Of a DNA stretch of 64,000 nt, positions 2,398 through 48,078 are shown piece by piece; positions within the stretch are counted from its first letter, which is position 1, and every line of letters begins with the position of its first letter. Source of the DNA: Candidatus Hydrogenedentota bacterium (GTDB lineage Bacteria; Hydrogenedentota; Hydrogenedentia; Hydrogenedentales; SLHB01). The DNA is taken from contig CAVUWV010000030.1 of NCBI GenBank assembly GCA_963745075.1, positions 26,309 through 90,308 of the forward strand, in the 5' to 3' direction. The translations under genes were made by a program, and so were the position numbers. The notes beneath the pieces were generated by a model that searched no databases, had not been told where the DNA came from, and was given only the letters and a program-made list of their open reading frames with translations.

Positions 2398-2532
2398 ATG
2401 AAGCACATCAAGGCATTGACGAAGGTCGATCCGCGGATGGCCGCAGCCCCGACGGGTAAGTGCGACACCATTCTGAAGACGCCGGAAGAGAAGGATGCGA
2501 AGAAGGCCGAGAAGCAGAATCCGAGCAGCTAA
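2398..2532 (+). CDS. 44-aa small peptide MKHIKALTKVDPRMAAAPTGKCDTILKTPEEKDAKKAEKQNPSS
   Basis: Below the ORF-track cutoff. Strong SD AAGGAGGT shortly before ATG 2398; sits alone in a long intergenic gap; N-terminus resembles the peptide at 39842. Confidence 0.7.
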   Translation: MKHIKALTKVDPRMAAAPTGKCDTILKTPEEKDAKKAEKQNPSS

Positions 2533-37509: not shown

Positions 37510-39762
37510 ATGCGTTGGCCAATCGGAGTGTGGATAGGCGCGGTTGTTCTTGCCACGCACGCGCTGGCGCAAGAGCTTACGCTTCAAAGTGCTGCCATTC
37601 GCGTTGCCCTTGAGCCAGATGGTGCGGCGGTTGCGCAGATTTCCGATCTCGGGACCGATCATGCCTTTCTCTCCACGGCCGGACACACTCCCCTTTGGTC
37701 GCTCGAATTGATGGACGGGACTGTTTTGGGTCCGGAGTCGTCCAAACGGGTGCCGAAGCAAGTCCGTTCCGATGCGGGAGACCGCGTGGCTATTACATGG
37801 TCCGAATTCGGCGTCGAGACGGCGCCGGATTTGCGCGTCTCGGTGAGTATGGGTATGCAAGCGGAACGGCCGGTAGCCCAGTGGCATATCACGTTGGATG
37901 GCTTAGGGGAGGCGGCGGTGCGTGCGGTTCATTTCCCACGAATCGGGCCGATTGCCAAACAGGGTGGCGAAACCTTGGTCGTGCCGCAATGGATCGGCGA
38001 GGCGACGACGCAGGCGCGGACCATGCTCAATCCGCAAGGTAGCGAAGGCCGTCGGCGGGAATGGGAATACCCAGGACTGCTGTCGATGCAGTTTCTGGCG
38101 CTGTACGGGGGCGACGGCCCGGGATTGATGGTTTCGACCAATGACACGGCGCTCAAGGCGAAACGATTCGCTGTCTTCGGGGACGGCAACGGGGGCTTGG
38201 GACTCGACGTCACGCATATTGTTCCGGTTAGAAGCGATGAAGACGGTCGTTTCGACCCCGGGTACGACGTGCTGATCGGCACGTTCGACGGGGATTGGTA
38301 TACCGCCGCCGATCGATACCGGGATTGGGCCAAGGAACAGTGGTGGGTCACGGAGAGCCGCGTGCGCGCGGGCCAAACGCCGGACTGGGTGCGGGACACG
38401 GGGCTGTGGGTGTGGAACCGGGGCAAATCACCCGGGGTGCTGGGACCGGCGGAGGCGCTGCAGAAGCGAGCGGGCATGCCGGTGAGTGTGTTCTGGCACT
38501 GGTGGCACGGATGCGCGTACGACGTGGGGTTTCCGGAATACCTCCCGCCGCGAGAAGGAACGGATGCGTTCCGCGCGGCGGTCGCGAAGGCGGATACGCA
38601 GGGGATCCATGCCATCGTCTATATGAACCAGCGGCTTTGGGGCATGACGACGAAGAGCTGGAAGGAGCAAGGCGCGGAAGCGTACGCCGTGAAGCAGCCC
38701 GATGGCACGGTTCACCCGGAGGTGTACAACACGTTTGTGAAGGCGCCGTGCGCCTCGATGTGCATGGGCACGGCGTTCTGGCGGAATACGTATGCAGAAA
38801 TTGCGGAACGGGTCGTGCGCAATCTTGGGGTGGCAGGCATTTACATGGATCAGGCCTGTTCGCGTCTCGCGTGCTACGACCCGATGCACGGCCATCCGCT
38901 GGGCGGCGGAACGTACTGGATGGACGGATTCAAGGCGCTGGAGCGCGACATCCGCCAACGTTGTGCGGATGTAAAGGCGGTGGCGCTCGCGGGAGAAGGA
39001 TGCGGCGAGGGGTGGCTCCCCCACCTCGATCTGATGCTTTCGTTGCAGGTCAGCCTGGAGCGTTACGCCGCACCGGGGATGTGGGAGCCGATCCCGCTGT
39101 TTAATGCCGTGTATCACGACTGTTCGACACAATACGGGAACTACTCGTCACTAACGCGTCCGCCGTACGACGAATTGTGGCCCAAGGAATTTGCGCCGAA
39201 GAACCCTCTCGCGTTGCTGAACCGGAAGTTCGCGACGCAGTTTCGGATGGAACAGGCGCGGTCTTTTGTGTGGGGACAACAACCGACGCTCGCCAACTTT
39301 CAGGAGAATCAAATAAAGGAGCGCGCGGAGGAGATCGATTACTTGTTGCGCGTTGCGCGGTTGCGGCGAGTGGCTTCAAAATATCTGAGAGACGGTGTGT
39401 TTCTGCGGCCGCCGGAATTCGAAGTGCCGCGCGCCGAGATTCCCATCTCGCGCCTCTCGATCTACGCGGGGCAACAGGACGCGGTACAGGAATACACGAA
39501 GACCGTTCCCCTGGTTCTTGCGAGCGCATGGTTGGCGAACGACGGCGACATTGGCATCGCGCTGGCCAACATTGACGACGCGCCCGGGCCAATTACCATT
39601 ATGCTGACTTCGGATCAATATCCCCTACCCCAATCGGGAACCGTTTATCGACTGACGGAAACGGGTCGCAGTGAGGTGACACGGATCTCAGGCGGTTCCG
39701 TGCGACTGGACCTCCCATTGGATCCCTGCGACGCGCAGGTCTATGAAGTCGTAAACGAGTGA
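37510..39762 (+). CDS. Secreted DUF6259-like putative glycoside-hydrolase-type protein
   Basis: Signal peptide ending THALA; WHWWH, GIYMDQ and LAGEG motifs reminiscent of a GH TIM barrel. Family label is from recall. Confidence 0.65.
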   Translation: MRWPIGVWIGAVVLATHALAQELTLQSAAIRVALEPDGAAVAQISDLGTDHAFLSTAGHTPLWSLELMDGTVLGPESSKRVPKQVRSDAGDRVAITWSEFGVETAPDLRVSVSMGMQAERPVAQWHITLDGLGEAAVRAVHFPRIGPIAKQGGETLVVPQWIGEATTQARTMLNPQGSEGRRREWEYPGLLSMQFLALYGGDGPGLMVSTNDTALKAKRFAVFGDGNGGLGLDVTHIVPVRSDEDGRFDPGYDVLIGTFDGDWYTAADRYRDWAKEQWWVTESRVRAGQTPDWVRDTGLWVWNRGKSPGVLGPAEALQKRAGMPVSVFWHWWHGCAYDVGFPEYLPPREGTDAFRAAVAKADTQGIHAIVYMNQRLWGMTTKSWKEQGAEAYAVKQPDGTVHPEVYNTFVKAPCASMCMGTAFWRNTYAEIAERVVRNLGVAGIYMDQACSRLACYDPMHGHPLGGGTYWMDGFKALERDIRQRCADVKAVALAGEGCGEGWLPHLDLMLSLQVSLERYAAPGMWEPIPLFNAVYHDCSTQYGNYSSLTRPPYDELWPKEFAPKNPLALLNRKFATQFRMEQARSFVWGQQPTLANFQENQIKERAEEIDYLLRVARLRRVASKYLRDGVFLRPPEFEVPRAEIPISRLSIYAGQQDAVQEYTKTVPLVLASAWLANDGDIGIALANIDDAPGPITIMLTSDQYPLPQSGTVYRLTETGRSEVTRISGGSVRLDLPLDPCDAQVYEVVNE

Positions 39763-39841
39763 GCTGCAAATCTTGTTTTCGTTTGTATGGGATCCTGTAA
39801 AACGCCGGTGCTGTCCTAACCACGACAAAGGAGAACCGTTT

Positions 39842-39949
39842 ATGAAGCATCTGAAGACGATGTCGAAAGCGAAACGTCCCGCTCCGGCGGTGGTTTCGTC
39901 GAACCCGATCAAGGCGTTCCTGATGAAGATTAAGGGCTCGCCGGATTAA
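39842..39949 (+). CDS. 35-aa small peptide MKHLKTMSKAKRPAPAVVSSNPIKAFLMKIKGSPD
   Basis: Below the ORF-track cutoff. AAAGGAG RBS 8 nt upstream; N-terminus similar to 2398-2532. Confidence 0.68.
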   Translation: MKHLKTMSKAKRPAPAVVSSNPIKAFLMKIKGSPD

Positions 39950-46047: not shown

Positions 46048-47034
46048 TCAATCCGCCCCTGAAACCGTCGACATGACTTGGGCGAGGTCGGCGCCATAGG
46101 TATCGGGAGGGCTGTTCGCCACGGGGAACCGGCTTCCGAGAGTTATAAACTTTACATGGCCGTCGAAATAGAGGACGTTTGAGCCGCCGGGGATATGGTT
46201 GAAACGGGCCGTTCCTCCCAGGAGGGGAACGTTGGCCGCCCATGTGTCCATGAGTACCGGTATCTCGGTTTGGCCTTTATAACCGGAAGCCGGCGAGTTT
46301 ATGTCCGTGATAACGAATCGTTCGATTCCGTTCCGCAGGCGCTTGTACCCGGACGGCATGAGGCTCCCGTCGTCGTCGATCTTTCCGTATCCGGCTTGAA
46401 ACTGCGGGTCACCGGGGATGTCGTCTTCGCCCAGGGAACCGTAGGCAACGAACTGTTTTTTCGGGCATCCCTGGTTCTGCATTTCGATCGCGTCGACAAA
46501 CACGGCGTTTCCGCGATCGCTTTCGTCAATTGCGATCAGAACCCGGCTGAGGATGATGTCTTTCAATTGCGATGACGAGTTCGTCAGATAGGAAATGTAC
46601 GTGTAGGAGACGCCCAACGACAACAACGCGTCGACACAGAGTGGCGTCGCGCCCGCATCGATGGCGTCTTTCACATAGGACTCGAGATTCAGTTTGAGTA
46701 CTCCCACAAACTCCCGGGCCCGCGAGTCGGATGGACAAAGGGTGATGTTCAGATCGGTCATGTAGTCTGGGTAGAGCACGGAACCGCGCACCCAGGACAG
46801 CGTCGGGGCGCCGTTCAGATGCCACTTTTGCGTCGGAGGATAGGATTCCTGTGGGTCCTCGGCGGCGTACATTTGGAGCACAAGGGACAGTTGCTTGAGG
46901 TTGCTTTGACAGGCTGCGCGACGCGCGGCTTCTCGCGACCGGGCCAAAGCCGGCAGCAGCACGGCGGCCAGAATTGCGATGATGGCGATCACCACGATGA
47001 GTTCAAGTAAGGTCAGCCCAACCTTTCCGATCAC
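46048..47034 (-). CDS. DUF1559 / H-X9-DG pilin-like protein (paralog)
   Basis: GTG start after GGAG; KVG|[42 protein letters not shown]; [15 protein letters not shown]. Confidence 0.92.
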
Positions 47035-47135
47035 GAAGCACTCCGCGGGTCCACCCGTGACCCGGTTTGAGGTATAAGGGTACCCCATCTACGGCCGTAG
47101 CCCTGTAAAAGGCGATTTGGCGCGAACGCCCGAAG

Positions 47136-47152
47136 TGCAGCGACTGCGCCAA
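47136..47152 (-). promoter_or_regulatory. Sigma54 promoter of the DUF1559 gene 46048-47034
   Basis: Minus strand TTGGCGCAGTCGCTGCA (GG-N10-GC), about 100 nt upstream of the start. Confidence 0.62.
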
Positions 47153-47310
47153 CTTCTTACGACGTTCATTATACAACATATGGGTGTAAGCAGAACCTGT
47201 CGAGGGCCAAATTGGCTTTGTTGTGGACGCTTCCAACCGGTTTCTGGTAGCTTCTATCCCATGTACCTGTGCGTAATTTCGGGTTTATACCGTTTTCGAG
47301 GAGGACACTG

Positions 47311-48078
47311 ATGAGTCATGAGCGATCGATACTTTCACGTCGGGCATTGTTGCAGGGTGCGGCGTTGGCGGGCGGTGCGTGTGCGCTGGGGCCGGCCGTG
47401 AGCGCCGCGGCTGTTCAGGAAAGCGCAGCCCCGCCGCTGAACGCGGGTGACGTGGTCCTGTTCCAGGGAGATTCCATCACGGACGCAGGCCGAAACCGGG
47501 ACGCCGTGGGCGCGAACGATCCGCATGGGTTCGGCTTTGGTTATCCCTTCATGATTGCGTCGCGGATGCTCGGGGTGTATCCGGGACTGAAGTTGCAGTG
47601 TTACAACCGCGGTATCAGCGGGAACAAGGTCCCGGATCTCCAGGCCCGATGGCAGACGGATACGCTGGACCTCAAGCCGAACGTGCTGAGCATTCTGATT
47701 GGCGTGAACGACATCTGGCACAAGCTCGATGGGAAATACGATGGTACGGTCGAAGACTACGAAGAAGGTTTCGCGGCGTTGCTGGCGGAGACGATTCAGG
47801 CGTTGCCGGGCCTGAAGCTGATCATCTGCGAACCGTTCGTGCTGCGGTGCGGCGCGGTGAACGACCAGTGGTTCCCCGAGTTCGACCAACGGCGCGAGGC
47901 GGCGAAACGCGTTGCCGATCTCGCGGGGGCGACTTGGGTGCCGTTCCAGTCCATGTTCAATGATGCGATCAGCGATGCGACTCCACCGGAATACTGGGCT
48001 GCAGACGGCGTGCATCCAACGATGGCCGGTCATGCGCTAATGACAAAGACCTGGCTCGACGTTACGGGTTTGGGATAG
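47311..48078 (+). CDS. Tat-exported SGNH/GDSL hydrolase
   Basis: GAGGAGG RBS; SRRALL signal; FQGDSITD, NRGISGN, IGVND, DGVHP. Confidence 0.92.
   Translation: MSHERSILSRRALLQGAALAGGACALGPAVSAAAVQESAAPPLNAGDVVLFQGDSITDAGRNRDAVGANDPHGFGFGYPFMIASRMLGVYPGLKLQCYNRGISGNKVPDLQARWQTDTLDLKPNVLSILIGVNDIWHKLDGKYDGTVEDYEEGFAALLAETIQALPGLKLIICEPFVLRCGAVNDQWFPEFDQRREAAKRVADLAGATWVPFQSMFNDAISDATPPEYWAADGVHPTMAGHALMTKTWLDVTGLG

Follow-up and report, generated by a model that had tools for sequence, protein, structure and literature searches.

A 35-residue MKH-leader peptide of Hydrogenedentota as a proposed remote precursor of a CteB-like/GNAT/CPBP/ABC cassette

Introduction

In prochlorosin-type systems, and in those built on Nif11 or NHLP leaders, many unlinked precursors share one leader, carry hypervariable cores and are served by one enzyme set. 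The leaders of SCIFF peptides may begin with MKH, as do those described below, a likeness that is not used here as evidence. In the SCIFF or ranthipeptide systems, e.g. CteA/CteB (PDB 5WGG) and Tte1186a/Tte1186, the precursor is short, has an N-terminal leader of about 16-18 residues and six Cys in its C-terminal 45 residues, and is encoded by one adjacent gene. On CteB, the RRE domain takes up the 18-residue leader of CteA by strand addition (PMC6231123). Acylation of ribosomal peptides by GNATs is described for the selidamides, for the nostolysamides and, as N-acetylation, for goadsporin (PMC13647313, PMC13060382, PMC5303826).

The present analysis concerns a gene for a 35-residue peptide at positions 39842-39949 of a window of 64,000 nucleotides, i.e. 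the whole stretch of DNA that was analysed (G000:C30:26309-90308). The window belongs to an assembly of 6.8 Mb with 59% G+C (G000), and the public relatives of its MKH-leader peptides in a protein collection search are labelled Candidatus Hydrogenedentota. Another contig of the same genome, C20, carries a cassette of modifying, proteolytic and export genes. From leader and genome comparisons we put at about 0.6 the probability that the peptide is a remote precursor of this CteB-like/GNAT/CPBP/ABC cassette and not a stand-alone amphipathic antimicrobial. A full-text search of the literature found no description of this cassette or of this leader.

Among the described systems, SCIFF machinery is related by descent. 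The cassette enzyme, a protein of 659 residues, is homologous to CteB over the RRE-containing N-terminus and the SPASM region, and its precursors are likewise short with an N-terminal leader of about the same length; as read from this homology, the cassette system is a descendant of SCIFF/ranthipeptide machinery. On the other hand, the enzyme is without the CxxxCxxC motif, its SPASM cysteines are incomplete and it has gained a GNAT-like C-terminal domain, and the Hydrogenedentota precursors are numerous and scattered where SCIFF systems have one adjacent gene. Identity with a SCIFF/ranthipeptide system was rejected, since the 35-residue peptide contains zero Cys, the enzyme has no radical-SAM motif and a search of the genome with TIGR03973 (SCIFF) matched none of the MKH-leader family members. 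Prochlorosin, Nif11 and NHLP systems offer a parallel in layout, as the present genome combines one processing locus with about 20 dispersed genes whose products have a conserved leader in common and cores that are unrelated. They differ in that the MKH leader is unrelated and has 16 residues against about 70-80, with no Nif11 or NHLP domain detected, and in the absence of a lanthionine synthetase, of a double-glycine site and, from the cassette, of a C39-peptidase exporter. A double-glycine-leader bacteriocin or PCAT substrate was also considered and rejected, because the leader has no GG motif and the exporter of the cassette is of the ABC-2 type without C39; the only match to PF03412 (C39 peptidase) in the genome is weak (23.7 bits, C8:454044) and lies away from family members. 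With the GNAT-acylated peptides, the common features are GNATs encoded with the precursors and core Lys residues that could accept an acyl group, in this peptide the conserved Lys24 and Lys31. The cassette is set apart from them by its GNAT modules, which number four and include one that is fused to a dead radical-SAM scaffold, and by a CPBP protease and an ABC-2 exporter that replace the usual partners, and acylation in it is putative.

The peptide gene and its conservation

The gene lies on the plus strand at 39842-39949 (TAA at 39947-39949 included) and encodes MKHLKTMSKAKRPAPAVVSSNPIKAFLMKIKGSPD. A Shine-Dalgarno sequence, AAAGGAG, occupies 39827-39833, 8 nt ahead of the ATG at 39842, and the coordinates and the AAAGGAG agree with the initial annotation of the ORF and its ribosome-binding site. 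Gene callers list the ORF as an unnamed 35-aa protein, and sequence searches of Pfam, NCBIfam and PDB with the peptide gave no match. Residues 1-16 (MKHLKTMSKAKRPAPA, 39842-39889) carry the family motif described below and would form the leader, with a putative end at residue 16; residues 17-35 (VVSSNPIKAFLMKIKGSPD, 39890-39946) form the putative core. The core has three Lys and one Asp in 19 residues and a net positive charge, so that its earlier description as Lys-rich is borne out. A Sec, Tat or lipoprotein signal peptide was rejected on inspection, as the basic n-region and the PAPA site, which resembles a c-region, have no hydrophobic stretch between them.

A block directly upstream (39760-39826, plus strand) aligns with the orthologous loci and may act as a promoter of the gene itself or as its 5' UTR. 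Within it are a weak -10-like element, TGTAAA/TAAAAC at 39796-39803, which stands opposite TAGAAT in the orthologues, and the sequence CTGTCCnAAC; a consensus scan of the block found no canonical sigma-70 site. No terminator belonging to the gene was found.

A six-frame search of 40 relatives of the genome recovered orthologues in three of the five same-genus genomes (G003, G004 and G005), aligned over residues 1-35 with 60-63% identity and no stops. All three are exactly 35 codons long, without indels and with the GGAG of the Shine-Dalgarno sequence kept in place, and they follow the pattern MKHVKA[LV]TK[TS]QMPAKAV[LF]SSNPIKAYLMMKKGS[SA]D. Two further orthologue variants are present in a protein collection; the profile search of the protein collection returned orthologues of other family members and none of this peptide, for which the orthologues come from the whole-genome search. 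The peptide was found within one genus only. In the six orthologue variants the segments SSNPIKA[FY]LM and KGSxD are invariant; Lys24 and Lys31 of the core are thereby conserved, and the last Lys stands 4 residues from the C-terminus. The start codon is TTG in two of the three orthologues, and in G003 and G004 a stop codon directly precedes it. Together these features fix the start and exclude the 58-aa TTG extension that is seen in G000.

Between the loci, only the ORF and about 80 nt upstream can be aligned, and the flanks cannot. Substitutions within the ORF are biased to third codon positions: over the whole ORF, G000 differs from the orthologues with pS of 0.69-0.76 and pN of 0.21, and over the core alone with pN of 0.12-0.14 vs pS of 0.7-0.78, while omega is 0.08-0.19 among the close trio of congeners (dN/dS about 0.1). 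This substitution pattern indicates that the gene is under purifying selection. With 35-aa orthologues in three congeners and omega of about 0.1, the earlier proposal of a small peptide with its own ribosome-binding site stands, and the ORF is almost certainly a real gene.

The MKH-leader family

Regular-expression and HMM scans of 302,905 small ORFs of the genome point to a family of about 20 Shine-Dalgarno-preceded small genes that have in common the leader MKH[ILV][KR]x[ILMV][ST]x1-4PxxA and are unrelated at their C-termini. The earlier reading of a leader followed by a variable core thus holds across about 20 members. The members, some of them paired or in triplets, are spread across 11 contigs or more and have no match in Pfam or NCBIfam. 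Several have orthologues with well conserved cores in public Hydrogenedentota MAGs, which indicates that the variable parts of these peptides are functional. At the DNA level, the 6.8-Mb genome contains five copies of ATG-AAR-CAY-(I/L)-AAR, where about one would be expected by our estimate; each heads an ORF of 32-50 aa, and a Shine-Dalgarno sequence is evident ahead of four of them. A looser pattern, ATGAARCAYNTNAAR, gives 10 matches in the genome vs one for the reversed control. The window contains a paralogue, a 44-aa peptide with an MKHIK leader (MKHIKALTKVDPRMAAAPTGKCDTILKTPEEKDAKKAEKQNPSS, 2398-2532, plus strand) that has orthologues in public MAGs. The MKH[IL]K start that was first noticed in these two peptides is accordingly far beyond chance genome-wide. 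Family members are conserved, Shine-Dalgarno-preceded coding ORFs of 30-75 aa, as is the 35-residue peptide, which very likely belongs among them. No shared promoter motif was seen by eye upstream of 19 members.

Some family members have neighbours of other kinds. At G000:C17:124430-127624 (minus strand), an ECF-type sigma factor (213 aa) and a 523-aa anti-sigma-like protein are encoded in a row with three tandem MKH-leader peptides, which start at 125250, 124920 and 124637 and all have widespread orthologues in Hydrogenedentota MAGs; this row may be a regulatory loop of the peptide system. The members at G000:C30:9996, 17 kb before the start of the window, and at G000:C13:166851 adjoin genes for asparagine-synthetase-like proteins (MCGI... 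N-terminus), the one on C30 apparently frame-disturbed in mid-gene. These neighbours could possibly provide extra tailoring, or their position may be coincidence. A sister subfamily, found at G000:C9:115753, C18:193492 and C18:193755, two of the members being in tandem, has the leader MRRIK[SR][VIL]SR..PF...P.P..A and cores of 52-59 aa that are rich in Cys and Trp.

The cassette on contig C20

The cassette was located by a genome search for PF02517. Seven genes for Rce1-like proteins are present in the genome, and one of the matches lies 3 kb from two family members on C20. The cassette spans G000:C20:133684-140571, with all its genes on the minus strand, in the order peptides, GNATs, CPBP, ABC ATPase, ABC-2 permease and 659-aa protein. 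The two peptides, of 64 and 45 aa, have the MKH leader; the three GNATs match PF13302/PF13420; the Rce1-like CPBP protease has 245 aa (PF02517); the ABC ATPase, which is followed by the ABC-2 permease, matches PF00005; and the 659-aa CteB homologue has no Pfam match.

Residues 24-192 of the 659-aa protein align with residues 6-174 of CteB, which hold the N-terminal RRE domain (E 1.8e-6), and residues 358-448 align with the SPASM region of CteB (E 7e-11). At the position of CNLRCKYC in CteB the protein reads EETVEKKKGW, CxxxCxxC is found nowhere along its length, and Asn takes the place of the fourth SPASM Cys. Its C-terminal 150 residues have a weak likeness to aminoglycoside N-acetyltransferases. 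From these features, the protein probably performs no radical chemistry and acts as a leader-binding scaffold with a GNAT-like domain of its own. A search of the genome for PF13186 (SPASM) matched only ordinary radical-SAM genes, five in number and all away from family members, and left the 659-aa protein undetected, its SPASM region being too degenerate.

A CteB-like gene is present in 102 of the 109 genomes of the phylum. Across the order, the RRE-like N-terminus is the best-conserved part of the cassette enzyme (58-64% identity vs 26-53% elsewhere), which fits a conserved leader. In relatives, many of the matches to the enzyme contain one or two in-frame stops (TAA, TAG or TGA) or come in two pieces, with the N-terminal part (about 120 aa) separate from the remainder. 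Some lineages may encode the RRE-like domain in a gene of its own, or the cassette-enzyme gene may be decaying.

Link between the peptide and the cassette

The leader connects the 35-residue peptide with the cassette. In at least 13 relatives, the CteB-like gene is preceded at a distance of a few kb by a same-strand match to ATGAARCAYNTNAAR, and the peptides encoded there begin with MKHxK. All of 20 in-cassette precursors from 12 other genomes start with M[KR]H[ILV], in most cases followed by [KR]x[ILMV][ST], and the hydrophobic in-cassette peptides of type A carry PxxA, e.g. in VTKSPAKAD and VSRTPARAAD. A leader HMM was built from the first 14 residues of these 20 peptides, i.e. from other genomes only, and searched against the 302,905 small ORFs of G000. 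The ORF at 39842 ranks first (18.4 bits, E 0.025), the E value being only modest since the motif is short; 14 of the top 15 are Shine-Dalgarno-preceded family members, and the genome's own in-cassette peptides rank 13 and 15. With an independent in-cassette profile, the leader similarity proposed in the initial annotation is thus well above that of random short ORFs.

The leader also follows the cassette across genomes. In 40 cassette-positive relatives, the leader DNA pattern has 206 matches vs 31 for the reversed control, and in six cassette-negative genomes (at least 85% complete) it has seven vs seven. A seventh cassette-negative genome, G090 (88% complete), which is not among the six counted, gives three vs zero, and the cassette may simply be missing from its assembly. 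Five of the six counted negatives belong to one family and the cassette is near-universal in the phylum, so that this test of co-occurrence rests on few independent events. As judged from the profile match and these counts, the leader of the 35-residue peptide is that of the cassette, the cassette is present in the same genome, and signature and cassette co-occur across the phylum. Physical linkage is absent, as the cassette stands on another contig than the peptide gene. The precursors encoded in the cassette itself have helical cores that are long and hydrophobic or aromatic, in contrast to the short cationic core of this peptide, and a substrate tolerance of the cassette has to be assumed.

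The same observations could be accommodated if the peptide were a real family member whose conserved N-terminus has a purpose unrelated to the C20 cassette, e.g. recognition by a different one of the seven CPBP proteases or by a different exporter, or a function inside the cell, with the likeness to in-cassette leaders due to common descent only. Such a role is rather unlikely, though it agrees with several features: no member outside the cassette is linked to it, some stand in the ECF sigma/anti-sigma operon (three) or beside AsnB-like genes, and Rce1-like genes are several in the genome. What speaks against it is that the leader at 39842 fits the in-cassette consensus better than do the in-cassette peptides of its own genome, that the leader pattern is unenriched in cassette-negative genomes and that the RRE-like N-terminus is the part of the cassette enzyme that is best conserved.

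Gene neighbourhood and core properties

The neighbours of the peptide gene are a DUF6259 gene upstream (plus strand) and then a convergent GDSL lipase gene, a DUF1559 gene and a sigma-54 activator. In G003, G004 and G005 the peptide gene stands between a DUF1559 gene and a GDSL-like gene, the orthologues of which in G000 are at 46048-47088 (minus strand, 73% identity) and 47251-48078 (plus strand, 76% identity). The syntenic site between them (47089-47310) is empty: the conserved flanking blocks CATTATACAACATA and TGGACGCTnCCnnCCGGTTTCTGGTAGCnTCTAT are kept and the peptide unit, ~300 bp in the three congeners, is missing. The G000 gene is found 7 kb from this site, beside another GDSL lipase and a DUF1559 paralogue of 34% identity. 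The empty site and the displacement suggest that a unit of roughly 200 bp, comprising the upstream block, the Shine-Dalgarno sequence and the ORF, has moved or been inserted independently within one neighbourhood. As there are more than 20 DUF1559 paralogues per genome, adjacency to one of them is weak functional evidence, and no GG-N10-GC box was seen before the peptide gene. The placement of the gene next to the DUF1559 cluster, as first described, is correct; a functional tie to a sigma-54-controlled cluster does not follow, given the different intergenic site in the congeners and the lack of that box. As the comparison of loci indicates, the adjacency reflects shared ancestry.

The core had further been described as amphipathic, as in antimicrobial or signalling peptides. 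Over the best stretch of 11 residues, its helical hydrophobic moment reaches 0.47, where shuffled sequences average 0.40 (P = 0.26), and the orthologues score below the shuffle mean. A conserved amphipathic cationic helix is therefore unsupported, and with it the antimicrobial or signalling role; the class of cationic amphipathic alpha-helical antimicrobial peptides was rejected on the moment, with the charge alone agreeing. A stand-alone peptide of this kind, tied to the sigma-54/DUF1559 cluster, is distinctly improbable. The three Lys and the net positive charge of the core would suit it, as would the DUF1559 and GDSL genes that lie nearby in G000 and its congeners alike. However, apart from the moment, the structured part of the core amounts to only about 11 residues, the flanking GDSL and DUF1559 genes of G000 and of the congeners are non-orthologous, and the abundance of DUF1559 paralogues and the missing upstream box weaken the association itself.

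It is hardly credible that the ORF is a chance one or an untranslated non-coding element such as a small RNA or a regulatory leader, since, very short as it is and without a Pfam, NCBIfam or PDB match, it has third-position bias, low omega, a fixed length and a Shine-Dalgarno sequence conserved in its orthologues, its locus has no Rfam match and its 3' region no RNA fold beyond shuffles (z = -0.94), and the synonymous codon variety across the family leader points to selection at the protein level.

Proposed pathway

Returning to the cassette reading, the peptide, with its 16-residue leader and 19-residue Lys-containing core, would be one of about 20 remote precursors served by the C20 cassette. 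In the first step, the RRE-like domain at the N-terminus of the 659-aa CteB homologue would bind the leader as a strand. The GNAT-like domain of that protein, the three free GNATs, or both, would then acylate the core, with either the side chain of a Lys or an N-terminus that has just been freed as the acceptor. Trimming of the peptide would fall to the CPBP (Rce1-like) membrane protease and its export to the ABC-2 transporter. We infer this order, from docking through acylation and trimming to export.

The position of the last Lys in the core is non-random. In 22 of 31 precursors, the distance from this Lys to the C-terminus is 3-9 residues, vs 9.6 expected by shuffling, with the 3-9 range chosen post hoc; by set, G000 contributes 11 of 17 members (5.7 expected) and the foreign in-cassette precursors 11 of 14 (3.9 expected). 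The 35-residue peptide fits the pattern with K31-GSPD at 39932-39946, and the counterpart in the paralogue is at 2512-2529. In-cassette precursors typically end in a hydrophobic residue, K and [EKN], followed by a polar or acidic tail of 4-8 residues. This position of the last Lys, together with a CAAX-protease homologue beside four GNAT modules, allows a CAAX-like logic built on lysine, in which a GNAT would acylate the subterminal Lys (Lys31 of ...MKIK-GSPD) and the CPBP/Rce1-like protease would remove the C-terminal tail, which is short and polar. We regard this version of the pathway as a long shot; in it, the tail may be cut as well as, or instead of, the leader. If true, it would mean that about 20 different C-terminally lipidated or acylated secreted peptides are made by one machine.

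Significance

Taken alone, the gene at 39842 is one more member of the MKH-leader family. Its analysis adds a verified member, a statistical link between leader and cassette, a test of their co-occurrence and a case of gene relocation within a locus, and the core encoded by the gene itself is short, contains Lys and lends itself to synthesis and substrate tests. Genome mining that looks only beside the enzymes would miss most of the substrates in a system of this layout. If the cassette reading is true, one phylum-wide cassette would serve peptide genes that are unlinked and evolve fast, up to about 20 of them in each genome, and a radical-SAM maturase turned into a non-radical leader-binding scaffold with acyl-transfer domains would represent a new biosynthetic logic for ribosomal peptides. 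An uncultured phylum would thereby offer a diversity of secreted peptides, probably acylated.
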